20,000 nucleotides of DNA from Perkinsus olseni. Lineage: Eukaryota. The position numbers and the translations under genes are program-made. This document shows, one piece after another, positions 833-19,891 of this stretch; position 1 is the first letter of the stretch, and each line of letters starts with the position of its first letter. The notes beneath the pieces are model-generated. The model was not told where the DNA came from and searched no databases. It saw only the letters and a list, made by a program, of their open reading frames with translations. The stretch spans positions 51,017-71,016 of the forward strand of contig JABANN010000107.1 in NCBI GenBank assembly GCA_013115125.1, in the 5' to 3' direction.

Positions 833-1930
833 ATGAAGAGCTTCCTCCAAATCCTCGCTTTGGAGTCTCGTCTCTTCGAGACCCTACTGAAGAGGAGGAG
901 CGGTCAAGCAGAGTGCAGCGGGGGGCTCTTGTTCGTTTTCTCGAGCCTGGTGCCACAGAAGCGATACACACTGGACTGCCCTCGAGAGGAGATTCTAGTG
1001 AGTCCACCACCATCATACATCTTCGTTATGAATGAGGATCTGTGTGGTGTCTATCCCACCCCTACTGGTGTATATATTAGGAAACCATTAGAACGTGGGG
1101 AGGAGGTCATGGTACTGCAGCCAGGCTTTCAAGGTACCAAGGCTGTCTACTATTACCATAATGACAAATCACAACTATTCGTATTGTGTGAGGATAATCG
1201 TAAGTTGATTATTTATGACCTGATAACGGAGAAGAGTGTGGCGTACTCCATTCTCGGACTCCCTGGTAACGGCTCCCGCAGCAGCAAGAACGCCGACCTC
1301 GTCTGCAATCCGCTCTTCGCCTTCTTCCTGGCTGCCACTGGACACCTCTTCTGTATCGACTTGCGTACGGTGGACGATGATGCCTTGCAAGCCAAGCTGA
1401 TATGGACCAGTCCTCACTCAGCCTCGCCGGAGAGTTCCTACGGGACGGTCAGATGCATGACAGGTGCGCCCGAGGCGGTGATGGTGACCATGGCTCATGT
1501 TGGTGACATCACTACCTATTTTCTCGGTATTGAGCATCCCGAGAAGCCGCCGCTGTATTTCACCGAGCTTTGTAAAACGGTCAATAGCCTCGGTCTCCAC
1601 TTGCCCTCGGATCATGCCGTTATTATACCTTTTGATGACCATCTCAATGGCTTCGTGATGAGGACCTATGAGCATGGCTGCTCCTATAGACTGTCACTCC
1701 TGAGCGACCTCGGTCACTCTATTGACATCGGCTACCGATTGCCGACTCGCCAGAGCCTGCAGATTGTGATTGGTGCCAAGGACGTTATATACATGATGAG
1801 GCAGGACACCTCAATGGTGTCCGCTGCCTACGAGTCATCTGATGGAGGTACTGCTTTGAATGGGGCGGCCAAGCGTAGGCGGACCGTTCAGGCCCCCTGC
1901 TGGATCTCCACACACTACGTCTTTCTTTGA
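833..1930 (+). CDS. Intronless hypothetical protein, tandem family copy 1 (365 aa)
   Basis: Long ATG-to-TGA ORF. Clear paralogy with 2171-3286 and 4235-5371: shared TLDCPREE...CEDNRKLI block, HLFCID...QAKLI motif, LQIVIGAKDVIY motif and a terminal hydrophobic/Tyr strand. Confidence 0.85.
   Translation: MKSFLQILALESRLFETLLKRRSGQAECSGGLLFVFSSLVPQKRYTLDCPREEILVSPPPSYIFVMNEDLCGVYPTPTGVYIRKPLERGEEVMVLQPGFQGTKAVYYYHNDKSQLFVLCEDNRKLIIYDLITEKSVAYSILGLPGNGSRSSKNADLVCNPLFAFFLAATGHLFCIDLRTVDDDALQAKLIWTSPHSASPESSYGTVRCMTGAPEAVMVTMAHVGDITTYFLGIEHPEKPPLYFTELCKTVNSLGLHLPSDHAVIIPFDDHLNGFVMRTYEHGCSYRLSLLSDLGHSIDIGYRLPTRQSLQIVIGAKDVIYMMRQDTSMVSAAYESSDGGTALNGAAKRRRTVQAPCWISTHYVFL
971..1223 (+). repeat. Near-identical ~250-bp in-frame cassette, copy 1 of 3
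   Basis: ctggactgccctc...gataatcgtaagttgattatttatgacctga. Matches 2306-2547 and 4370-4622 at the DNA level. Confidence 0.95.
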
Positions 1931-2170
1931 TTGCTTCATTCTCTTTCGGCTTCCCTCTCCTGAACTTAATTCGTGATGGTGACCCCTTTGTCGTGGCATC
2001 ACCATGTGAACCATTTCCTAGCATCTCTCTCAATTTCTTATCCGGTAATGGACTTGAGTTGCCTGGGAAGCTACAAGACAATCCAGACTGTCTTCGTCTG
2101 GAATCGTCGGCTTCGTCACTGGGTGGCAAAGTATCCCTTTCGCATAGTTACTGTAGAGTTGTTTCCGTGA

Positions 2171-3286
2171 ATGAGGCTGCCTGCAGAGATTATGGCTTTG
2201 GAGCTTCGAGTGCTCGAGACCATGCTGGAGAAGTCGGGCAGGTCGGGGACGCTACCCGAGGTTGGGAAGGCATACATGGATTTCTTGGGCACTCGACCGT
2301 GTACGCTGGACTGCCCTCGAGAGGAGGTCCTAGCGAACCCACCACCATCATACATCTTCGTTATGAACGAGGATCTGTGTGGTGTCTATCCCACCCCTAC
2401 TGGTGTATATATTAGGAAACCATTAGAACGTGGGGAGGAGGTCATGGTACTACAGCCAGGCTTTCAAGGTACCAAGGCTGTCTACTATTATAATAATAAC
2501 AACAAATCACAACTATTCGTATTGTGTGAGGATAATCGTAAGTTGATACAGTACAACCTTTCCGACTCGCCCGTAGGCCAAGGCGTGACCACTGAAGTCC
2601 TAGGCCTACCAAAAGCTACTGCCCTCAATAAGACCGCATCACAGCTCCTCTACACCGATGACTTCGTCTTTATCATTTTCCCTACCGGCCACCTCTTCTG
2701 CATCGACCGACTCGATATACGGGACGCGGCCCAGGCGAAGCTCATCTCCGCGGACCGACTCGATGCAGGGAGCACGCGGAGCCTGCTTTCGGTTCCTGGC
2801 GATTCGAAGGCGGTCAAGCTAGCAGTGTTGGGCTACCGAAGATTTAAGATGATTACTCTCAAATTAAAACAGAGGAGAAGCCCGTTGTACTTTGAAGAGG
2901 ATACTGAGGAGCTTGACGTGGCATCGAAGCTCGGTGAGACTAACAGTGAGATGATGCTAGTCCAGGATGTAGCCGGCCAGTGTCTCGCCGTGATGGCCAG
3001 GTCCGGCGGAGTTAGCGGGTGCCGAATTTTCCTTTGCAGCAGATCCCTGAGGCCTCTGGGGAAGGCTCTGGTGTTCTCTAATGAGTACCAGCCAGTGCGC
3101 AACCTGCAGGTTGTCTTTGGCGCGGATGATTTGGTATACGTTCTCCGCGAAGATAATACTCTGGTCGAGCGCTTCTTAGAGGAGGACTATGATCCCGAGT
3201 CGGTTCATGAGTCGGAGTTGCGTGGCGACTCAGACGCTGACTACTCGAGAGCCTGCAGGCTGGCCACTTACTACATTTATAGGTGA
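2171..3286 (+). CDS. Intronless hypothetical protein, tandem family copy 2 (371 aa)
   Basis: Long ORF, collinear with copies 1 and 3 over its full length, with the same conserved blocks. Confidence 0.87.
   Translation: MRLPAEIMALELRVLETMLEKSGRSGTLPEVGKAYMDFLGTRPCTLDCPREEVLANPPPSYIFVMNEDLCGVYPTPTGVYIRKPLERGEEVMVLQPGFQGTKAVYYYNNNNKSQLFVLCEDNRKLIQYNLSDSPVGQGVTTEVLGLPKATALNKTASQLLYTDDFVFIIFPTGHLFCIDRLDIRDAAQAKLISADRLDAGSTRSLLSVPGDSKAVKLAVLGYRRFKMITLKLKQRRSPLYFEEDTEELDVASKLGETNSEMMLVQDVAGQCLAVMARSGGVSGCRIFLCSRSLRPLGKALVFSNEYQPVRNLQVVFGADDLVYVLREDNTLVERFLEEDYDPESVHESELRGDSDADYSRACRLATYYIYR
2306..2547 (+). repeat. Near-identical in-frame cassette, copy 2 of 3
   Basis: The core 2339-2488 differs from 1004-1153 at only 2 of 150 nt, both synonymous. 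Confidence 0.95.
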
Positions 3287-4234
3287 ATGCTGTTGATAAT
3301 TAGAAGTTGAAGAATGGTTGTGAGTGGCGATACCAATTTTTACATTGTCTCATTTGCTGCCACTGGCGTTGTGTCATCAAACTCGGAGGAGGTGGAGAAG
3401 TTGAGGACGGTGTGGTATGGAATCAGTCACGGGGGTTGTAGTTGTCTTGCTCTGAATAAATTTTCTACTTTGATCTGCACGAGTTGCTAGTTCGCTGGTA
3501 CTCGGTATCTCGATGGTTCTCTCAGGTCACGCTCACGAGTCAGGCATGTCTCTTTCTCTTGCAGGGGACAGGAGACTCGCCAGCTCGTTGTTGGAATGGT
3601 GCTAAGATGCAATATCAAGTAAACTGAATCAGGTGTATTCCCACCCCTAAGCCCCCATAGTGAACCCTCTAGTTCCCTAGTCTACGCGTGGACAGGAACG
3701 GGCACTCCGTGCTGTGCACGCTGCTGCGTTGTCGGTAGCGAGTTCCCCGGCCCTGATTAGCGGCCTCGACGCCGTACGTTCTGTCTCGCTATAGCACCGG
3801 TACCTGGACACCGTCCTGGTCTCAGTGCCCGACTGACGGGGTCTTTCCCGTGGATAGCGCCGTAGTTGCTCGCCGAGCTATCATTCACACCTCAGAGTTA
3901 TCCCGTGTTCATTTCATGTGTTACCGTGTCACGAAAATCTGGGCCATCCGTATGAGAATTCTTACCCCCTCTCTTCTCATAACCATGCCCACTTGGCCTG
4001 CGCCTCAGGTTGCTACTAGTGACAGCCACGGTAATGGGCTGCAACGAGAAGTGAATCCTACTTCAGGTCTAGTGCAATAGTTGTCCTAGAAGATACCCTA
4101 GACAGTGAGGCGTCAGCCCTACTTGGCGCCTCATGACTAGGGGCCACTGGTTGAACTGTTGTGAGATGTGGCCATTGGTTGTCCGAGTATATCCCTCAAC
4201 CTTCAGTTCTTTCCCTCTGTGATTTTTCCTCGAT

Positions 4235-5371
4235 ATGAAATTGCCGCCCCACGCCATGGCCTTGGATTTACACCTCTTCGAGTCGGTGGTGCAGAAGTCT
4301 GCCGGTATGGGCTCCTTGCCTGAGTTGATGTGCGAGTTCGCCCCTTACATCGGGAAGAGGGAGCTTACGCTGGACTGCCCTCAAGAGGAGGTCCTAGTGA
4401 ACCCACCACCATCATACATCTTTGTTCTGAATGAGGATCTGTGTGGTGTCTATCCCACCCTTACTGGTGTATATATTAGGAAACCATTAGAACGTTGGGA
4501 GGAGGTCATGGTACTACAGCCAGGCTTTCAAGATACCAAGGCTGTCTACTATTATCATAATAACGAATCACAACTATTCGTATTGTGTGAGGATAATCGT
4601 AGGTTGATTATTTATGACCTGAAAAGCAGCCCCAAGCCAACCAGCATCGTAGTTGAGGTCCTGGGCTTGCCCGGTTCCAAGAGTAGCTATATGGATGAAA
4701 GTGGCGTGGAATTAGCTTGCACTGACGACTTTGTCTTTGTCCTCTCCGGTGCCCAGCGTATCTTCTGCATCGATCGACTTGGGGTCGTTGATAGCGCCCA
4801 AGCTAAGCTCATTTGGTCTGCCCGCTTCACGATGGTTGAGAACAGCCATCTGATGATAGATCCTCGGGAACCTCGGGCTGCGCAGCTGATATTATCATGT
4901 TCTTCCGAGTCACAGCATCCGTGGGTCCTCCTCGCGCTGCAGTTGAAAACCCGCCGAGAGCCTCTTTACTTCAGCAAGGCCTTCAGCGCGATTACCCCAC
5001 AGGTGAGTAGAGATGAGGATGAAGATGAGGAGGCTACTGCTGTATACGACATTCAACCTGTTGGTCATCACGTCTTGGCAGTGCACCACGCTGCCCCCTT
5101 CGTCGGAGAAGAGGCGATCACGCTTTGCAATCGGCAAATGTATGCCCTAGGCCCACCGATGCCTCTGTTGGACCTCTACGAGTATCATGAACCACAGAGG
5201 AAGCAGCTAGTTTGTGGGGAGAGAGACCTCATCTACACCATTGGTGACGCCTCCTTTGATGCCGCTGACATAAACAATGCCAGCGCGAGAGTCGGGAATA
5301 AGAAAAGAAGAGTCGCCCGAAGACCGGGATCGGCGTCTCTAATTGGATCTTATTACGTTTCTAAGAAGTGA
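4235..5371 (+). CDS. Intronless hypothetical protein, tandem family copy 3 (378 aa)
   Basis: Long ORF. The N-terminus MKLPPHAMALDLHLFE aligns with MRLPAEIMALELRVLE of copy 2, and the same conserved blocks are present. Confidence 0.87.
   Translation: MKLPPHAMALDLHLFESVVQKSAGMGSLPELMCEFAPYIGKRELTLDCPQEEVLVNPPPSYIFVLNEDLCGVYPTLTGVYIRKPLERWEEVMVLQPGFQDTKAVYYYHNNESQLFVLCEDNRRLIIYDLKSSPKPTSIVVEVLGLPGSKSSYMDESGVELACTDDFVFVLSGAQRIFCIDRLGVVDSAQAKLIWSARFTMVENSHLMIDPREPRAAQLILSCSSESQHPWVLLALQLKTRREPLYFSKAFSAITPQVSRDEDEDEEATAVYDIQPVGHHVLAVHHAAPFVGEEAITLCNRQMYALGPPMPLLDLYEYHEPQRKQLVCGERDLIYTIGDASFDAADINNASARVGNKKRRVARRPGSASLIGSYYVSKK
4370..4622 (+). repeat. Near-identical in-frame cassette, copy 3 of 3
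   Basis: The core 4403-4552 differs from 1004-1153 at 6 of 150 nt. Confidence 0.95.
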
Positions 5372-5707
5372 ACGTTACTTCGCTTTCGTCAACCAATCTC
5401 ATCTGTCATGAGGGTGCTCCGGGGTCGCGTTCCACAGGTCTGGGCTACTGGGCCAATGCCACAGTGATGTGATCCGGATTCTAGTAACAGTCTCAGGGTC
5501 GAAGTCACAGGCCTCGGTGGGGCGGAGTGCCTCCTCGTCTTTTGAAGTACAGCTGCCGTGACTCCGTGCTTACTTACCAGGTCTCGCCTCCGGTCGGGTA
5601 CTGGGCAACTGTCCTGGGGTCCCGGAGGCCTGGGATGAGCGCTGGTACAGGCGTGATGGTCCACCAGAGCTTCTCGGGCCGTCTCAGATTTGTTCCTCTC
5701 CTGTGTC

Positions 5708-7819
5708 ATGTGTAATACAACTGTTCCCAGCGGCCGGGATGAAGCAGCGTCATCTGCTGCCAGCACAACCTCCTCATCGGAATCGACTTGTTCTGGGGAG
5801 CCCAGGCTACCACTGCAAATGGAGATCTCTCTGCGCAGCAAGGTGGGACTGAGTGGGCTTAGAGGATCCTCCCCTGAGACTCCAGTGGGCGGCACTTCCC
5901 CGTTCTTCAGTCCTTAGTAACCATGATGAGTGTACGAAGCAAGGAGTGGTCAGTCATGGACGACCTATGGCGAACCTCTTCTATGCTCAACAGACGGGAG
6001 AGGCGACCAGGGGTCAACATGGACGTAACGATCGGACTGAGGGACCGATCAATGTCTGACCGATCCTTATCGTCACAGTAGGTTGACACGCTCCGTGTGG
6101 AGAACATGACTTGGCGAATGAGAAACAAGTGGAAGAACCATGTGCCCTCCGAGATAGACTACGAGGATGATGCTAGTGTAAGAAGAATGCAATTTCGTGG
6201 CGCGCGACAAAGCTTGGGTGATCTCAGCCGGACTCTGCAGGCATCGACGAGTCTTGCAAAGGCCTTCTTGACGTTATCAAGGACCACAATGAAGATATTG
6301 AAGTCGAGACTAGCCGGTAAAATAATGCGGCGGAGCGAAGTTTTTTCTGCTATCTTTGACTGAGCCCATTGCCTCTAGGATCCTAGCTGGAGCTCCCTTC
6401 GCCAGTACCTCTCTGAGCAGCGTCTTCCGTCACGAGTAAGGCAGGCGCCTACCGATCGGGAATCATGCGCAGCTTTCAGTCACTACCACGGCTTCCTGCT
6501 GGACATGGATGGTGTCCTTCACCAGTTCGGCAAGGCTATCCCTGGCGCCAGTGAGTTCATGACCACACTCAACGCTGGGCAGGTAGCCGCCTCCTTGGGT
6601 CGAGGCTTCTTCTTCACACTTCCATAGGTGCCGTACATGCTGCTGACCAACGAGTGTCGGTACACTACGGAGGAGTTGAGTCGGAATCTATTGAGCATAC
6701 TGGGGGTTAGCATACCCGCCAACCAGATCTACACGGCGGCTAACAGTAGGTCGCCACCTGCTCGGCCTCCCGCCGCTACTACGATCTCTCAGGTGCTGCG
6801 GACTTCTTCTGTCGGCTGATGGCTAACGGCTGGACGGGCGTGGTCTACATCGTCGGTGAGGTGCGTCACGGCTGGGATGAACCGTCACCCCTGCTAGCAT
6901 TTGTGTGATCAGATTGGTCTGGTCTCTACGGTGAGGCAGGCCTTTGTCAAACATGGGCTGCCGGAAGACTCGGTTGTCACGGGTGATACCAGGAGAAGTC
7001 GATCGCCGAAAGAAATTGATTACGTCCTCATCGGCTCGGTAACCAGCAATCTCGGTGAACAGAGAAACGCCGCAGCCAGGGATCGAACCGGCGTGATGCT
7101 ACGTCCTCCGCCAGGTCCACTCTGACAACACTCGGTACGTCGAGTACGCCTGCTCCTGCGTACAGGAAGGAGCTCGGCTCCTCTTCACCTGTCCTGATTA
7201 CTACGAGGTAGACCCTCTCCCCGTCCCTCCACCACATCCACTCCTTAGGTGACGTCGGATGGCAGCTACAAATTCGGCATGCCGATGCCGGCGGTTGAGA
7301 CCATATCCAAAGTAGACGGCCGCCACTACTACTGCTGCTGCTGCTGCTGGGCTTCATAACCGCCTTCAGGTTACTCATGCGTCCTCGTACAACCTGGGCA
7401 AGCCCAACCCACATATGCTCCGAATGGCTCGGCAGCGGTTGCTGTCACAGTATTCCCGTGGCCGCACCCCAGGGCTGGGGCCAGTCCTTTTTGTTGGCGA
7501 CTCTCTAGGTGCTTGCTCACCACTGGTGTGTCACCTGTCACCACCCATCTCACAGGTACGGACATCCGTACGGCTATTGAGAACGGCATAGACTGCGCCT
7601 TGGTCATGAGCGGGTGCACGGATGAACAACAGTTGAAGAGAAGCCCACTCCTCCCAAACTTCGTACCAAATTTCGCCCTATTCATCTGCGCTGTTTACCC
7701 TCCGTCAGGTTTTTGTGAGTATCAAAGAGCTCATGGCCGCCTATGGGAGCGGCTCGCTGGTGCCTTGCGTCCCCGACCTCCCAAGCAGCGCTGGGGTGGC
7801 CGCAGCAGCAGTGCACTGA
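5708..7819 (+). CDS. HAD-superfamily class IIA hydrolase (NagD/phosphoglycolate-phosphatase-like) with an N-terminal extension; spliced
   Basis: Predicted GT-AG exons: 5708-5842 (tentative), 5911-6024, 6082-6177, 6228-6316, 6379-6435, 6480-6582, 6628-6745, 6793-6860, 6913-7038, 7115-7207, 7249-7311, 7370-7508, 7556-7662 and 7709-7819 (13 exons plus the tentative first). They give one open frame with motif I FLLDMDGVL, motif II LLTN, motif III GKPNP, motif IV VGDSLGTDI and then ALVMSGCT...PNFVF. The start is uncertain (5708 or 5923). Confidence 0.88.
7326..7349 (+). repeat. (CTA)2(CTG)6 microsatellite inside an intron of the HAD gene
   Basis: Read directly; lies in predicted intron 7312-7369. 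Confidence 0.8.
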
Positions 7820-8074
7820 TAACGCTTCACACCCTGTCTATAATGAAGCTTCCTCAGCGTACACGTTACGCGAGGTGTCAATTTTTTGACGGGCTCGAGT
7901 CCTCGGAGAGGATCGTCAATGGTCACTCCCCTCGATCGGTTCCTGTGGATCATCTGATGCTACTCGCGAGATGAGCCAACTAATGTGTCCTTATAGACTT
8001 AACGGCAGTCTCGCGTTAGTGAATTCATATGAGGAGGCACACGGACATTAGGGAACGTTTCTGGGGGAGTCCGC

Positions 8075-11000
8075 ATGACTGCCTGTGAGAGTGATGCAGA
8101 ACAAGAGGACTGGCGAGAGTTTCAGAGAGCGACTTCACCCAGCGAACACTGTGCGGCACCTGACGCGGGCTTGCTGCCCGGACGTGCAGCTGTCCGTAGG
8201 TGCGGGCTCTAAGGAAGACGGGCTAGGTGGCGGTGAAGAAATGGAAGCGATCGCACAGAGGCAGCATGCTACCACTCGGGATAGCGCTGTGCAGGAAATA
8301 CAAGCCGGGAGGGGTGACTGTGTGGTCCCAGAGCGCACCAAGAATGGCCAAGTGGGGCCCACTGCGGCCCAGGGTTCAGCTCCGGGAAAGAGCCGGAGCA
8401 CTCACGACCTACCCCGGCTCGAGGAACTGATAGAAAAAGCAGTAAACAGGCGATCGGGCATGAAGGTGGTGTAATTGTCATTCCGGCTGCTCAGATGGAA
8501 GACGCCGGGCCGAGTCCAACCCATGAGACCACATCCACTCCGATCTCAGAGTCTAGCAGATCACCCTCTGTCGTGTCCGAGGACTTTCACGAGATACGGG
8601 TACGAGAAATCTCCTTCGCGGTGCTAGCGTTGGCTCCAGGCTTGCGCGCCCGTCCTCACGGACTACGACCTGGAGGACCAAGAAGCCAGCAAGATGCGGA
8701 TCTTCGTCCACTCGGAGTACCGCCGTCTCAGTTATCACACCGAGCCTGCACCTTCAGAGCTCAGGCACGGTCGGCACGCAGTTGGCTGGTTCACTGATAT
8801 CTCCTCCCCAGCGGACATACGGGAGTGTATATTCGCCGCGGTGGACAGCATCGTCGATGATGGCGCGAAGGTGTTCAAATTACGCTCCCGGAAGTCGGGT
8901 AAACTACTCTTGTGAGAGTCAGGGCGTTCCGCTCCGCTAAGGTACGATCATCGGCCTGGACTCGGACGAAGATCTCCCCAAACTCACCAAAGGCGAACAC
9001 TACGACCTGCTGGTCGGCGACCGCCTGGCCAGCCTTGGTCATGACAATGATGATGCAGCAAGTGTGGGGACGGGCTTCTGCCGCGGCACTCAACTGTGTA
9101 TGCTGCAGATGACTCGAGATGGCGGAGGTTGAGGGTATCAATCGACCCCATGAAGCATATGGAGACCACCAAGGCCTTGGAGAGGTGGCCATGGTCCCAC
9201 TCATGACTGCCAGGGGTTCGACCATCTGGAATCACTGTCTAGGCGCCTCTATTCGAGTTCGTGATGCTCAATAGCCGAGCCTGCTCCTGTCTCGGCACTC
9301 TTTCATCAGTGCATCAGGATGTGCCGCGGCACCAACCTTCTAAAACACACGGACCATGGCCACCCACACTTGCGGCAATTCCAGCTCTCGACTGACCACC
9401 AAAGGCTGCTGTGGTGAGCTCGTCCTGACTGGTCCACCTTTCGCGCAACTGATTATTATTGATGAGGGTGTTGTGGTTCTCTTGCTGTTGCCCTGTTCAT
9501 CGAATGCCGCACACGCTGCAATGCGTAGATGTGGACTCAACCCATCTCCCCATGCGGCAACTTCTCCCCGGCTAGAGCCTATCTGCAGGTACTCAGCAGG
9601 TCAAGACCGCAAGGAGTCCATAATGTCTCTTGCTGACGTGTGTGAGCTCAGGCTCGGACAGCAAACCCCCACTTTCCTCAAGTGAACCGTCCAAACCTCC
9701 CATCACAGTCGAGCGACTTGTTGGCTAGGTATCGGCTGCCTATGCTCCAGCATCTCTCCTTCTCACTCATCTACAAGCCTAGCGGCAGCGAGAAGGTCAC
9801 AGCACTGGACCTCACTTGCAAGGACGAATTCGAGTTAGGATTCGGGGAGCACTCGCTCTCACCGGGGTGATATCGTCAGGTACGACATCTGGCTGACTGG
9901 CCTCAAGGCCCTCCTCTGCGCCCAGCGGAATAGTAGGCGTTGCCTCTAGGCTTAGCCAGGGCAAGCCAGCGGCTAGGCACAATATCGAAGGAACAGCTCT
10001 TGGCACACTCGAGGAGGTTCAGGGACGCCTTGGAGAAGCAAAAAGTTCGAGTGAAGGTGTGCCCCATTCTATCGTCCTGCTTGATCACGACTTTTCAACT
10101 CGTAGTTGCTTGAGATGGATGAAGTGAAGGAGCGTGGCACAGTTGGTCTCTATGACTGTGTGAAAGTGTCAGAAAGTGAGGAGGCCGATATGGTATAATC
10201 AGCTCGAGTGTATTGCAGGTGCTTCTCCCAAGCAGCTCCGTGCTAAGCTCGAACGTTTACGAGATCGTCTTAAACACGTCAGGGCCGCACTCAATCGAGT
10301 CTTGGAGAACCGAGGTCCTTCGGAATACCTCGAAGTGCAGCTTTCCGCTACATCATCCTTAGGAGACGAAGAAGCTGTGCGTGACCAGGATGGGTCGGCC
10401 CCACTCACCGGCGTGGAATGGACGATTTCCTCGGCCGCAGAACCGGCGTACGAACGTGTTAAATCTTCTTCACTCCGGTGATTGACACCACTGCTTCAGC
10501 TACTCATCACTCCTGTCGGACGTGACTGATGTTGAGGATGAGGAAATGGAGGCCTCGCGTGCGGTTGAGCTCACCGACGGTGTACTCTTATCCTCATTTG
10601 CTCGTGGCGCCCGAGTACCCAAGCCTCAGGTATCTTATATACTGGATCGAGTCAGCTCCGACCTGCTTACCTTGGAAGGTGAGTCATTCAGGCGACCACT
10701 CGCTGTTTGTGATCATCCTTAACCTGCTCCGCAAGACGACTGAGCGGACTTAGGTCGAGGCACACAACCGGCAGGCGACAGGGGAACTCGACTCCGAGGG
10801 CTAGACCAGTCACTTTGGAAAGCCGAGGTCGACATCGAAAATGTCGAGGACATGTAGCTAAGCGATGCTCATTGCAATGCGGGTCGCGCTGAGCAACGCG
10901 AAGCAGGCTGGTGCCATCTCTTCTCAGGCGCCAACGTCTCCTCGAGGCCCGGGATAGGGATTCCGGTAGGGCAATAGGTCTGTTGCAGAGTCTTTGTCGG

Positions 11001-11889: not shown

Positions 11890-14073
11890 TCATGGCATTG
11901 AGGGAAACGTTGGCCTCCTGGACATCGATATTTCCAACTTGGCGGGCCCATAGGTCAACCTAGCTTTGACTTCAACCTCGGATATATCAGAACTGTGCTT
12001 TATGTCTGAGGAGATTACATCGTGGGTGGAGCCAAGTGGATTGAATAAAGAGACTCAAATTATTCAGCGTAAATCACGCCTAACTGCCGTAGGTCTGAAG
12101 CGATCTATTTGTAGGCCCGTATGCCGAACAGTATGTCAGCAAGCAAGAAGGCACTTCTTAGAGCCGAACGTTGGTTCTGATGTGCACGAAAGAAGTGCGT
12201 TAGGAAAGCTGTGCTCGTGGCACCATGCGACTCCGTCTTCTGAATTTAATCTCGATGATGGTTCGTCATCCGAGATCGGGGCACAATGTTCAAGTCGCGA
12301 GGGCATCCCCGTCTACGACCCTCAAAGGACGCACCTGAACGAGCTGCCGCCCTCAGCGTTGCTGCGCATCTGTTTTCCTGTGAGGGTAACTATCCAAGTC
12401 CCCTCTGGCACTTCATGCCCTCGAACTGACACGTTGGCTGTGGTTTCGTTTACGAGCAGCGGAACCGGTGATTTAAGCTGACGTGAGTGTGTTAAGAGGG
12501 GGCGCACGAAGTGGAGAGCAGCTTACGCGTAGGGTTTCCAGAATACAGCTCTCCACGAAGGGGAGTTGGTCAAGATCGTCGTTGGTCTCCGGATCGTGGC
12601 CGAGAATGTCCACTTCTTCCCGAGCTCTCGCTTGTGCATCAGGATAGAGACAGAGGTAGTAGAGGCACCAGGAGAGAGCGGCAGATGTGGTCTCACTGCC
12701 AGCGAAGAACAGCCTGAACAACAATAAGATCAGTCGCTCGAACATCGTAGGAACGGTCAGCTCACGTCACAATATTCCCCTCGAAGTCGTGCTTGTCCAA
12801 TTGCAGGAGCCCGCTGAGTAGATCCGATCTTTCACGTCCTTCCCATTCTGCCCTCCTCTGCACGGCGAGATCATCCGCGAACTTGTTCAGTCGATCGATA
12901 CTTGCATAGAACTGGGCGGAGAAGAACGACACTGCCTGTCATCCTCGACACGCAATTCACCTTCTTTATTATCGGGTTCAGATTCCAGGGGAAACGGTTT
13001 CGTGTGATAGAGGGAAGAATCGCACTGAAATCCAGTATATAAATTGATCCTTCCACGAAGTGGAAAATGGACTGAGCGATCTCCCGGGAACCGGGGGGAA
13101 CCGTGATGCCTGAGAGAGACGAACTCCCGACTGCCAGTTGGAGGGCGCTGTTACAGACGACCATCAACTTGAGACGCGATTCTCACCGTCGGGGTTGAGG
13201 AAATAGAAATCCATTCCAAAGGTAGTGAGGCATAAGACGTCGAGCGAGCATAGCATAAGCCAGTTGGTCGGCTCCCAAACAACCCGACCGTCACAATCTA
13301 GAGTCCGTAATTGTCGTACCTAGAGAGCCCCAGTAGGGACTACCCCATTGTAGCAGCGAGTAACTGATGACCTACCAGTCTTTTGGCGACGACTGCCATT
13401 GCGGGAACCATCTCTGCCGAGTTATGTTCGTTTAACGCCGGAGCTGCCAGCCTCCTGTTGCGCTTCCACTCCTCTCCCTCCGCAGTCAGCATGCCAGGAA
13501 TTGGCAGCAGCTTGTCCTTGTTGAATGCCCTTATAAAATTATGTGGACGCTCCTTAAGAACTCCTTTGATCGTCTCATAATTCGTCAAAACGACCGATTC
13601 TTGACCCATGATTCTGAAAAGCATTCTCAACAATCAGCCTGATTGAACCAAATGACAGAATATCGACGCGTCGCCCCGCAGAGTTACTTAATCGCGAAGG
13701 TATCGCCATAAGTATCGGCCAAGATCTCCAAGCCATAGAGAAAGTGCTCAGAGGACCTCGGGACGAATCCGAAATAAGGAATGGGCTGAGGGAAGTCGTC
13801 AAATGAATAGATTGGTCCGTAGGAAGCGAGCATGACAGTGGTCAGTCGACATTGACCACTCCTAGCGGGAGGTGAAGCCACGCTCACCCCGGGAGTTCCT
13901 CCGAGTCTGTCACACAGTGATGGTCGCTGTCTACGCCGCTTAGTGGCTCGGTAGAGGTAGACGGCGGCCACCACTGCCATCCCCGAGGCCATGAAACGGG
14001 GGAAGTGGCGGGAGCGCACCAATGATCGGATCTCGTTGACGAGGCCTGGAAGGACTTCGGCGAGTCGAATCAT
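11890..14073 (-). pseudogene. Cytochrome P450 paralogue 1 lacking the heme-binding segment (probable pseudogene)
   Basis: N-terminal anchor, PGPIPYFG hinge, C-helix WKRNRR, I-helix AGSETT and K-helix ETLR are present in exons collinear with paralogue 2. The last exon jumps from the acceptor at 12006 straight to the ...IKHSSDISEVEVKARL sequence. PQRW and FGSGPRRCPG are missing, and the spliced frame stops at 11989-11987. Confidence 0.8.
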
Positions 14074-14408
14074 TATTGGAGAATGAGCGCTCCAACCTTC
14101 CAGGCTGAGCTTTGGGTCCGGACTCTGTAGGATAAAGACGAGAAACACATCTCGGTGAGACATATCGCTCGCCCGACTAGTACACCCTGCTAGCCCTCGA
14201 GGGAGGGCGGTCAACTGTTTGCACCATAACTTAGTACAGTGTGTCTATTTGACACGGGCCCCAAAGAGAGGTGAGACCGGACTCGAGAGGAGCTCTGAAA
14301 AAGCTGATCCCCTCTAGGATCCAGAGTGAACGTACGCTCAATAGCATGACGAGTGTCGCGTTCGTTGACCTAGGCGCCTAGTTATTCGCTTCCCCACTCA
14401 CTCTAACC

Positions 14409-15924: not shown

Positions 15925-16691
15925 CTTGCTCGAGAGGCACGACCACTCGAGTGCTTCACATCGGCAAACGTCCAACTAAGCCGGGATCGGCATTGGACTA
16001 TAAACTCACACACGACTCCAGTACGATGGGCCCAACTTCAAGATGATGCTATTCTCCAGCCGAAGGCACATGACGTAGAGTGAAGTCGATGGATCCACGC
16101 AGAGCACGCCTTCTAGCTTTCACATTTGGTCGTCTCCATTTCGGGGACGAAAGGCAGGGAAATGGTCGACTTCAAATAGACGAACGCGTCGTCCTGACCG
16201 TTCACGAACAGATGATAGACAAACATGAAATTCACTCAATGAATCGCAGAACAATGTTCTGAGAACATGATTGAGGGTGTAGTCCGCGAGGTTTTGCGCC
16301 GCTAGGAGCCGGCTCATGCTTTGCACGGCAGATTCATGCCAAACGCCTGAGAGTGTTGAAGTCTCACATGGCCCGTCGGAACTGAACTCAAGCTCATCTA
16401 GGATTTAATGAGACTTAGCATCAGAACATATGATTGTCGACGACAACAGAAGCAACTTGCTTCAAGCAAGAAAAGCCTCAACTGCTATAGTAACTGTAGC
16501 AGTTGAACTATAGAATAGTGCTAAGCCAAGCCTTGCGAAAGAATGGAAAACCCTGTTTATGTCTTAACTCTAAGCAAAACGCTATTCGTAGTGAGTCGGG
16601 GTTAACTTGAGGATTGCTCTAACTTGAAGCCTTTATCTTGCCGATTGGCCTCGGGTCATCCAGCCCTCAACGACAGTGGTGCTACAGAAGA

Positions 16692-19163
16692 TCAACTCTG
16701 TCTTCTGGACATCGAGATTTCTAAGTTAGCTGGCCCGAAGGTGAATCTAGCTTTGACTTCAACCTTGGATATATCAGAACTGTGCTTTATGTTTTCGAAA
16801 TGACGTAGGATCATCGCCAGCACCATAGTGCCCTCTTTGATTGCCATACTCGATCCGGGGCAGCGGCGAGGACCGGAACCGAATGCCAAGTGCTCTTGAA
16901 CACGAGCTCGGTCTACGCCGCCGTCGGAGGTCAACCAACGCTGTGGGCTGAGGAGATCACTTTGTGGACGGATCAAACTAGGTAAGTCATGAATACCAAA
17001 CCTGATGGCTCGTCATCCGAAGTTGGGGCACAACGTTCAAGTCGCATCACGACTGCCGTAATGGCTCTCCAGTTCACGACCCTTCAAAGACTCACCTAAA
17101 GAAGCTGCCGCCCTCAGCGTTGCTCCGCATCTGCTTGCCTGTGAGGGCAACTATCCAGGACCCCACTGGCACTTCATGTCCGCAAACTGACACGTTGGCT
17201 ATGGTCTCGTTCACGATTACGGGAGCCGGTGATTTGAGCTGATGTGCGTGTGAGGCGGCATACATGAAATGGAGAGCAGCTCACCCGTAGGGTTTCCAGA
17301 ATGCAGCTCTCCACGAAGGGTAGTTTGTCGAGATCGTCGTCGATGTCCGGGTCACGGCCCAGGGTGTCCACTTCTTCCCGAGCCCTCGCTTGTGCATCAG
17401 GGTAGAGACAGAGGTAGTAGAGGCTCCAGGCAAGAGCCGCAGATGTGGTCTCAGTGCCAGCGAATAAAATCCTGCACAACAATGCTATCCTTCACTTGAA
17501 CCACTCAAGTAGGTTTCCCCTACGTCACTATGTTTCCCTCGAGGGCACGCTTGTCCAGTTGCAGTAGCTTGCTGAGCAAGTCCGATCGTCTACACTCTCC
17601 CCCTTCTGCCCTTCTCTGCATGGCGAGGGGGGGGGGGGGGGGGGCCCCCCCCCCCCCCCCCGGGGGGCCCCGGGGGGGGGGGGTTGGGGGGTGGTGGGGG
17701 GGGGGGGGGGTGGGGGGGGGTGGGGGGCGGGGGGGGGGGGGGGGGGTGGGTGGGTGGGGGGGGGGGTCGGGGGGGGGGGNNNNNNNNNNCGGGGGGTTTT
17801 GCTTTCCCCGGGGGGCGCGGGCCCCCCCCCCCCCCCCTCCGCGCGGGGGGGGGGGGCGCGGCCCCCCCCCCCCCCCCCTCGCCATGCAGTTCACCAGTGG
17901 CGAACTTGTTCAATCGATCAATGCTCGTGTGGAACTGGGTACGGGTGAATGATGGCGGCGGTTGTCAGTGACAGCCTATGACTATGAATACGAACCTTAC
18001 ACTTCTTATCATCGGGTCCAAATTCCAGGGAAAATGATTTCGAGTTATGAATTGGAAGCCAGCGCGATCCATCACATACGCTGCCCCTTCCACGAAGTGG
18101 GATACTGATTCAGCAATCTTCTTGAAGCCAGTGGACACCGTAACGCCTGAGAGAGATGATGAACAAGTAGGTGGCGGTGAATTCAACTGGGTTGGATGTG
18201 GCTGTTAGGGACGAGTCACTCCACGATTACAGTACCACATTCTCACCGTCGGGGTTGAGGAAATAGAAATCCATTCCGAAGGTGGTGAGGCATAAGACTT
18301 CGAGCGAGCATAGCATAAGCCAGTTGGTCGGCTCCCACACAATGCGACCGTCACAATCTAGAGTCCGCAATTGTCGTACCTAGAGAGCCCCAGTAGGGTC
18401 TACCTCATCAGACTTGCGAGAGGCTGCTGACTTACCAATCTTTTGGCTACGACTGCCATTGCAGGAACCATCTCTGCCGAGTTATGTTCGTTGAACGCCG
18501 GAGCTGCCAGCCTCCTGTTGCGCTTCCACTCCTCCCCTTCCGTGTTGAACATACCAGGAATTGGGAGCAGCTTGTCCTTGTTGAAGGTCCTCAAAAGATT
18601 GTGTGGGCGCTTCTTGAGAATTCCTTTAATCGTCTTACAATCCGTCAAGACGACTGATTCTCGGCCCATGATTCTAAAACACCGTTCTAAAAAATCGTCC
18701 TGCTTGTACCGGCTGATGGACAAAGCGACCCGTTCACGGTGAAGGTTCACCAGATTTACTTGATCGCGTAAGCATCACCATACGTATCGGCCATGATCTC
18801 CAAGGCATAAACGAAGTGCTCGGCCGACCTCGGGACGAAGCCGAAATAAGGAATGGGCTGAGAAAAGTCGTTGCATGGACAGGGAAGACTCGTGATGGAG
18901 CGAGCATGACAGTGGTCAGTCGACATGGACCATTCACGGTGGGGGCTACAGCTACCCTCCGTGAGTGCTACGCCCACCCCGGGAGTTCCGCCAAATCTGT
19001 CACAGAGTGATGGGCGCCGTCTACGTCGTCTGATGGCCCGGTAGAGGTACACAGCAGCCACCACTGCAATCCCCGAGGCCAGGAGGCGGGGGGAGAGGCG
19101 GGAGCGCGCCAATGATCCAACCTTATTGAAGAGGCCGAGAAGGGCGTCGGCGACTGGGAGCAT
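16692..19163 (-). CDS. Cytochrome P450 paralogue 2 (spliced, 9 predicted exons; exon 6 interrupted by a gap/poly-G stretch)
   Basis: MLPVADALLG...AVVAAVYLYRAIRRRRRR anchor, PGPIPYFG, WKRNRR, AGTETT, ETLR, FFSPQRWL (PERF-like) and heme motif FGSGPRRCPG. GT-AG junctions are in the same positions as in paralogue 1. The CYP family cannot be assigned by eye. Confidence 0.88.
17627..17878. other. Poly-G/poly-C low-complexity stretch with a 10-N scaffold gap (probable sequencing/assembly artefact)
   Basis: Ns at 17780-17789 are flanked by G/C homopolymers. The stretch sits mid-exon, where paralogue 1 reads NKFADDLAVQRRAE without interruption. Confidence 0.85.
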
Positions 19164-19891
19164 GTTTGCGGAGTGAACGCCTGAGGCCCGAGAGGCCGAG
19201 AGGGCCAAAGACTCCCGTTGATGATGGAGCACAGCGTACACTGGAAATGCCCGAGAGGGACCTCAGCGCGAACGTCACGTCTTGCTCTGCCGCCGGACTC
19301 GCATTTGCCTCTTTGACAAGTTTCCACTCCGTGATGCGGAGCGGTTGCACGCATGCCCTGAGTGAGCCCATGTTCATCGGATGAACTTCATCCAACGCAA
19401 TATGTTCCCACGGAATGAGCTTGCTAGCACAACTCCCACGACACAGCCCGACGACCTGCAGTGCGATTGTGCCAGCGTCTTATGTACCGTCGTCGACTGC
19501 GTCGGGACTTCATAATATGCCAGCGCGTTTTGAAACCTGAACGCATGTGGCCACGCATGCGCATTTGAGGGTGTACGCATGCCCTGCGCATGATCACTTA
19601 TTCGCTAATAACTCCATAGCCAGTTAGCTATCGGCCACCCGACGAACTTCGGTAGCATGGGCCTCTCAGCCTCTACCCGCTGTATGTATCTCAACTTCGT
19701 ATCTGTTGTACATTTCGAACTAAACATGATCAACGACGAACAAAATTTCCGAATTTCACTTGCTCAACAACCAAAGGTTCTGGGAACTTGCTGGGAATTA
19801 GAAGTGCTTTTCGCGCTCGAACTGCCGCGCAGTTGTGTCAATCTTAGAATCGCAGCGGGGAGATTTCCGGTATGGCTCAAGTTGACCACCC

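Follow-up and report, generated by a model that had tools for sequence, protein, structure and literature searches.

The gene array at the start of a 20,000-nt stretch of Perkinsus olseni DNA (assembly GCA_013115125.1, contig JABANN010000107.1, positions 51,017 to 71,016; here called the window) raises the question why three strongly diverged tandem genes, g1, g2 and g3, carry a nearly identical block of about 250 bp inside their reading frames. The source is a 39.9-Mb assembly of 3353 contigs (G000), in which the window corresponds to C80:51017-71016. An earlier note, made from the letters of the window alone, had offered localised gene conversion, a donor or mobile cassette, or constraint as DNA or RNA as explanations. 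The most convincing answer, which we consider very probable, is a regional (mosaic) and recurrent non-allelic gene conversion in an old array of paralogues, located in the most constrained part of the protein.

The block lies in frame in three intronless genes, each consisting of a single open reading frame (ORF). A recount of 150 core nucleotides agreed with the earlier note: copy 1 differs from copy 2 at two positions and from copy 3 at six, four of which are non-synonymous. A genome search with the block resulted in six matches, all located in family genes (g1, g2, g3, gA, gB and gC). The many dispersed copies of a large family that had been expected were not found in this assembly, the six being a lower bound given its 3353 contigs. 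In windows of 20 codons, nucleotide identity amounts to 0.85-1.00 within the block and to 0.19-0.61 wholly outside of it, which bears out the described divergence, and at the protein level the flanks are only about 33% identical among paralogues. At codons for the same residue, synonymous differences were counted at 24 of 575 in the core, 73 of 137 in the N-terminal flank (N-flank) and 337 of 534 in the C-terminal flank (C-flank), summed over the 10 non-independent pairs of the five intact genes. Synonymous sites are homogenised in the block only and not in the flanks, which supports localised gene conversion; an equal synonymous divergence of block and flanks, named beforehand as the sign that would speak against it, was not observed.

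Sharp boundaries common to all copies, as originally described, disappeared when the six copies were aligned. Among the 15 pairs, the left tract edge falls at alignment column 38, 54-58 or 86-91 and the right edge at column 238, 285, 302, 316 or 384. The tract edges are staggered and nested, and the block is not a cassette. The core they enclose spans 198 columns; 23 of these vary, and the other 175 read the same in all six copies. Outside the block, exact tracts of 16 nt were shared among the six genes only by gA and gC. Most variable columns of the core belong to a short AAT/CAT repeat (2486-2504 of the window and the same place in the other copies), which varies in length and sequence (HND, HNN, NNN to NNNNN).

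The age of the paralogues was assessed at the protein level with trees and identities of 19 proteins from three Perkinsus species (P. olseni, P. chesapeaki and P. marinus) and two further records, including nine P. olseni rows. In the C-flank tree, g1 groups with Pmar_PMAR020272 (support 100/100), g2 with FOL47_009593 (95/93), gB with 009594 (94/94), genes A/C/D with 009595-6 (100/99) and genes E/F/G with Pmar_PMAR020273 and 009591-2 (100/99). Since the C-flanks group by orthologue across species, the paralogues predate the divergence of the three species. In the core, P. olseni paralogues are 92-100% identical to each other (36 pairs), compared with 52-77% between P. olseni and P. chesapeaki (54 pairs) and 72-82% between P. 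olseni and P. marinus (18 pairs), and the C-flank identity among the P. olseni paralogues is 23-72%. The separate trees proposed in the earlier note thus show, for these protein sequences, a block that sorts by species and a C-flank that sorts by orthologue. Forcing the nine P. olseni rows into one clade cost 502 log-likelihood (lnL) units for the C-flank (P value of the approximately unbiased test, p-AU, 3e-47) and 0.003 lnL units for the core.

Between orthologues, the core is better conserved than the C-flank (53-85% vs 36-69%; the pair g1/FOL47_009592, not orthologous by tree, was not used), and judged from these sequences the block is the most conserved part of the protein. The segment occupies the equivalent place in the P. 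chesapeaki and P. marinus orthologues, and the same block was found in proteins of five named P. olseni assemblies. Among 33 block rows from P. olseni, 17 agree fully over 51 aa, although rows of related isolates are not independent, the gene model P0111 skips half of the block, and P0029 and P0030 were omitted as their models skip part of it.

Similar tracts exist elsewhere in the family. Neighbouring members among the six tandem genes of P. chesapeaki share species-specific versions of the same zone, e.g., 9591/9592 with 96% identity in the N-flank, 90% in the core and 33% in the C-flank. In the wider superfamily, members of cluster C1671 are 88-100% identical for about 120-180 nt from the ATG and about 30-65% thereafter, and members of cluster C1769 are 90-100% identical for 300-480 nt and about 40-78% thereafter. 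Near-identity is found only at the 5′ coding end of both clusters (first 120-480 nt), and the upstream and 3′ parts are diverged. Several of the tandem members (L028:1708, 3144, 4931 and 7190 for C1671; L029:1216, 2947 and 5414 for C1769) contain frameshifts or early stops.

Four points weigh against recurrent conversion as the explanation or weaken the support for it. P. chesapeaki lacks a family-wide homogenisation (core 39-90%, mean 58%). For the core, a p-AU of 0.008 was obtained despite the lnL difference of 0.003; this value was read as unstable and used neither way. A metagenome scan for relatives found no DNA of other Perkinsus species, and the block comparison across species is one of proteins only. 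Finally, the G + C content at third codon positions (GC3) is lowered in the tract, the opposite of the usual conversion signature.

Mechanistically, purifying selection would have kept approximately the first two blades of a predicted beta-propeller similar enough for continued homologous recombination, and the flanks would have diverged past the recombination threshold. Tracts extending into the flanks would be blocked by this divergence or purged by selection. The same shared stretch could also support unequal crossing-over, giving rise to chimeras and changes in copy number.

The base composition of the tract is the main argument of the strongest rival. As counted before, the G + C content of positions 971-1220 is 110/250, compared with 0.53-0.58 in the flanks. 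In the core, 21-24 of 60-62 codons end in G or C vs 38-39 expected for the same residues with flank codon usage (P<=1e-4, the five copies counting as one observation). GC3 falls to about 0.39 in the tract, against 0.65, and no 63-codon window of the C-flank falls below 0.51. The homologous region of 12 distant family ORFs, including the 5′-homogenised clusters, has a GC3 of 0.46-0.72, and a position effect on GC3 is ruled out by these relatives. CpG occurs 2-4 times in the core vs about 10 expected, which is still low given a GC3 of 0.4 (P=0.03). No signature of methylation or of the type of repeat-induced point mutation can be claimed, since the minority changes in the core run in mixed directions. 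GpC is depleted to the level of CpG, owing to the small number of Ala codons in the segment; a literature search on DNA methylation in Perkinsus brought up no paper.

This composition would fit a block constrained as nucleic acid, be it a shared RNA element, a target or source of small RNAs or a co-regulatory protein-binding site with selected A/T-rich codons, since the core is low in CpG and, unlike the 12 distant ORFs, in GC3. We regard this as unlikely: folding is unremarkable (z -1.17 sense, 0.15 antisense), all five other frames contain stops, Rfam gave no match at E<=1, and the tract ends are staggered. In addition, the protein version changes from species to species, and a fixed element would withstand such change. 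Under recurrent conversion, the preferred conjecture for the low GC3, given somewhat less than an even chance, is that repair without GC bias would have re-synthesised the stretch many times and let it drift towards mutational equilibrium. Mitotic conversion is mutagenic. According to the available excerpts, converted regions usually gain GC (PMC2720389, PMC1852091), and this gain is not universal (PMC3924838, likewise an excerpt and the only paper that turned up in a search on AT-biased ectopic conversion). The block offers a test case for GC-lowering conversion.

Even less probable is a single recent sweep, in which one donor version, possibly from a lost A/T-richer paralogue, was copied once into all P. 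olseni paralogues. The star-like core tree with its very short P. olseni branches and the family-wide identity in P. olseni only would be expected from such an event, which would also explain a composition unlike that of the flanks. It is contradicted by at least four left and five right tract ends, by the separate pairwise tracts in P. chesapeaki and in clusters C1671 and C1769, and by the absence of a low-GC3 relative among the 12 distant ORFs.

The earlier note had also considered an assembly or polishing artefact, and here the answer is divided. Read evidence consisted of the contigs of four public runs (X1, X6 and X8 among them); two of the runs are RNA-like, a status that is the guess of the tool. 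In all four runs, whose contig sets are independent, contigs are interrupted at the blocks, and differences specific to individual copies are retained; the repeat is thus present in the reads and is not a polishing artefact. The occurrence of the block in proteins of five P. olseni assemblies and the private differences of each copy (23 of 198 columns vary) likewise contradict a collapse, and near-identity of the block as an artefact is highly improbable in spite of a collapse-like defect at copy 3 and an N gap in poly-G sequence at about 17620-17890. Copy 3 as assembled is indeed a chimera with about 1.8 kb missing.

The chimera was recognized by comparison with P0018, a fused model of the neighbouring genes E and F from another assembly. 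Up to aa 76, all 11 diagnostic residues of g3 are those of E; from aa 88 onwards, all are those of F, and aa 129-378 are identical to F. Runs X1 and X6 contain a 1594-nt contig at unique-contig depth (209 vs 190-217; 90.5 vs 82-95). Its beginning coincides with the end of a block, it meets the g3 C-flank in a 28-nt stretch, and the 5′ flank in which it terminates deviates from the g3 one at 17 of 178 letters. All four runs contain an identical joint and the identical 11 listed 5′-flank differences, and a loose end in run X8 reads as the C-terminus of E. Neither the E C-flank nor the second 5′ flank was found in G000. Because the 1594-nt contig is present in the runs and these two flanks are not in G000, about 1.8 kb (E C-flank, spacer, F 5′ flank and one more block) is missing between two blocks. 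An assembly collapse is likelier than a true deletion, between which the contigs cannot decide for the source isolate. This shows that whole genes can drop out of short-read Perkinsus assemblies at such blocks and that chimeric models can arise there. The 28-nt stretch, which also fits the missing gene E, is possibly a second, short shared tract. The four amino-acid changes of copy 3 consist of two private changes from each chimera parent; they had been taken as an argument against constraint on the protein, which fails on this count and in view of the 17 identical rows and the conservation between species.

A cassette, mobile or supplied by a donor, that was inserted into the genes or overwrote their sequence has next to no probability left. 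In its favour are the sharp identity steps, the lower GC and, in the broken paralogue gD (contig C548), a transposon-like end that lies 2-3 nt ahead of the core edge. Against it, all six matches lie in family genes with no stand-alone copy, the ends are not shared, the segment is integral to the fold and present in all orthologues, and the gD junction is one isolated event that was spotted post hoc. In gD (L009:2502-3132, minus strand), the 5′ part breaks off 2-3 nt short of the core. It continues into 288 nt of a repeated element end with four matches in G000, after which come a 15-nt duplication and the final codons of the gene. This element end resembles that of a hAT-type transposon.

The suggestion that a constant module with variable C-terminal regions may act as a recombination hub gained support from chimeric genes. 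P0003 and P0027, from two other assemblies, combine a g2 N-flank with a gB-type C-flank; between the C-flank of this chimera and other gB types, 26-41 of 252 residues differ. P0003 is located between a g1 C-terminus and a g1 N-terminus (FOZ63_031129-031131), the layout expected from unequal crossing-over through the block. The FOZ63 records contain three g2-type N-flanks vs two g2-type C-flanks and two gB-type N-flanks vs three gB-type C-flanks, which implies at least one chimera, provided that sampling is complete. The g3 group comprises five distinct C-flanks (38-50% identical), four of them behind a near-constant N-flank and the fifth known from P0048, a C-terminal model only. Taken together, the assembled sequences suggest that the block enables unequal crossing-over and thereby chimeric genes and copy-number change, at the level of fragmented short-read assemblies that could make the same joins themselves. 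The gB-type C-flanks P0005, P0032 and P0003 differ in a patchy manner at 9-41 of 252 residues and look as if they had recombined among themselves.

The protein was modelled with AlphaFold2. For g2, a model with a mean predicted local distance difference test (pLDDT) score of 75.8 and a predicted template modelling score of 0.74 was obtained, with helices at residues 4-21 and 28-40 (pLDDT about 60-68) and a propeller over residues 43-371. The block encodes approximately residues 39-126, predicted to form eight beta-strands or roughly two blades. Fold searches resulted in matches by Foldseek (E 6e-7, TM 0.46) and VIA (Z up to 15.2, root-mean-square deviation 4.1, 252 aligned) to six-bladed beta-propellers (CyRPA, NHL, kelch, sialidase). 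The likeness is one of fold only, with 3-14% identity and many tied families, and no function can be inferred from it. Pfam gave no match above cut-off for the three full proteins, and the best hit of a 32-row profile in the PDB (E 0.27) is at chance level. Long NHL-repeat matches of the profile search were rejected as generic blade likeness, covering only positions of about 100-180.

A predicted N-terminal helical module of two helices, followed by a propeller as C-terminal interaction domain, is present in the family. F-box and DCAF proteins are substrate receptors of the cullin ligases SCF and CRL4, respectively; a full F-box has three helices, and DCAF proteins bind DDB1 through a helix-loop-helix box. 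An Atlas search with a distant member gave F-box/NHL and F-box/WD clusters at 0.82-0.85, a weak lead. Skp1 is encoded in the genome, and one CPSF_A-family locus was found, which is not identified as DDB1. The predicted complex of g2 with P. marinus Skp1 (P0116), calculated without alignments, scored 0.56 vs 0.00 for the best of three controls (contact agreement >=37%, partner pLDDT >=64) and was graded weak. There is about an even chance that the family proteins are F-box-like substrate receptors of a Skp1-cullin-F-box (SCF) ubiquitin ligase, in which the N-terminal part would be conserved and the blades that bind substrate would vary.

Three results speak against this function. No Pfam F-box or F-box-like match was found in eight N-termini at E<=10. 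The Atlas search with g2 itself led to DCAF17-like clusters (0.92 at low recognition), again a weak lead. At scores <=0.60, the mark was reached by 5 of 78 solved complexes and by all four passing mismatches (of 180), and likeness to solved F-box-Skp1 complexes may drive the score of the g2-Skp1 model. By analogy, the architecture and the evolution of a constant front and a variable back resemble the F-box family as described in the excerpt of PMC3984280; membership is not proven by this. For a lineage-specific family whose members are annotated as hypothetical, this is a first lead on structure and function.

Sub-gene conversion of this kind is known from other systems, compared here with the available excerpts of the respective papers. 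Clustered protocadherins of fugu have a homogenised 3′ region with GC3 raised to 54-69% vs 38-45%; they share with the Perkinsus array tandem paralogues, one region homogenised including synonymous sites beside a divergent region, lineage specificity and clusters without homogenisation, whereas here a 200-250 nt internal tract with lowered GC3 lies between flanks of about 33% protein identity (PMC1852091). In the mammalian pairs BMP8A/B, DDX19A/B, TUBG1/2 and TLR1/TLR6 (cited therein), one part of the gene clusters by paralogue and the other by orthologue, and conversion with purifying selection is proposed to keep a shared binding region; these are pairs with whole converted exons and raised GC, as opposed to at least nine paralogue types with a sub-exon tract (PMC2720389). 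In primate Fbxo6/Fbxo44, conversion spans the F-box and part of the next domain and the C-terminal domains of the receptors evolve fast, but it was one ancestral event in proven F-box genes and not a family-wide tract behind the helices of an unproven F-box (PMC3984280). The GOT1 paralogues of Tigriopus californicus form a mosaic of high and low divergence in which conversion leads to new gene combinations; their divergent islands in a converted gene are the inverse proportion of the P. olseni case (PMC3728101). Searches of titles and abstract beginnings in an open-access library brought up no paper on Perkinsus gene conversion, gene families of P. olseni assemblies or Perkinsus F-box expansion that covers this case. 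Contrary to the initial expectation of an undescribed kind of system, the process is a known one, regional gene conversion, in a gene family not yet described, and represents a clear case of sub-gene concerted evolution in the Perkinsozoa.

At least nine paralogue types share the sub-exon tract, with chimeras and variable gene content. It is a long shot that the A/T-shifted block is a break-prone exchange hub maintained in P. olseni, joining a constant Skp1-binding front to changing propeller back ends, so that isolates would differ in partly chimeric repertoires of ubiquitin-ligase receptors. If true, a parasite would here possess a compact means of diversification, based on conversion under which GC goes down instead of up.

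Table 1. Coordinates of the converted tracts, the family genes and associated features (window positions unless a contig is given).
Feature	Position	Strand	Remark
Converted tract, copy 1	971..1223	+	core common to all six copies 1001-1192
Converted tract, copy 2	2286..2547	+	core 2336-2530; common with g1 and g3 from 2302-2306, with gB from 2286
Converted tract, copy 3	4370..4622	+	core 4400-4591
g1	833..1930	+	intronless ORF, 365 aa; two N-terminal helices and beta-propeller family
g2	2171..3286	+	intronless ORF, 371 aa; AlphaFold2 helices and propeller
g3 as assembled	4235..5371	+	chimeric, with a 5′ part from gene E and a 3′ part from gene F
E-to-F switch interval	4463..4495	+	switch between codons 76 and 88
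28-nt g3 (F) C-flank stretch	5210..5237	+	also fits missing gene E; run contigs
Likely trans-splice acceptor of g3	4205..4206	+	RNA-like contig (run X8, L027:7622) with Perkinsus spliced-leader letters
gA	C80:48398-49541		directly upstream in array; two frameshifts
gB	C80:49746-50888		directly upstream of g1
gC	on contig C548		sixth block copy, family gene

The closest proteins of the family genes are P. olseni hypotheticals (96% for g2), followed by P. chesapeaki and P. marinus (17 matches, 14 of them named Perkinsus). All five C80 genes are partly covered without gaps by listed contigs of the two RNA-like runs, with no intron joint listed inside, and the g1 C-flank is covered gap-free by RNA-like contigs; run depths were not used for ranking expression. 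In the RNA-like contig, spliced-leader letters (Perkinsus leader sequence taken from the available part of PMC3101222) are joined 30 nt ahead of the g3 start. One of the two frameshifts of gA (L007:7299-8442) falls within the block; the downstream one is spanned gap-free by contigs of all four runs and is therefore real in those samples. A scan for bacterial promoters and terminators, a method not applicable to this organism, gave no hits.

Just upstream of the array, L027:1-660 is covered by very deep contigs in the RNA-like runs, with a skip of 198-199 nt whose ends read CT..AC, and is a highly expressed spliced gene on the minus strand. The stretches L027:713-745 and 9605-9626 are common to many unrelated contigs, with many loose ends and a depth in the thousands at 729, and represent a short dispersed repeat. 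Right after the array, at about 5690-7900 of the window, a spliced HAD-like hydrolase gene with GT-AG introns and leader letters at L027:9103 is located, which is fused to a family gene in model P0020. Furthermore, two intron-containing cytochrome P450 paralogues are encoded on the minus strand (about 11900-14250 and 16690-19250), which are 77-91% alike, with one 300-nt stretch at 91%. The second contains poly-G/poly-C around an N gap (17620-17890), which looks like a sequencing or scaffolding artefact.

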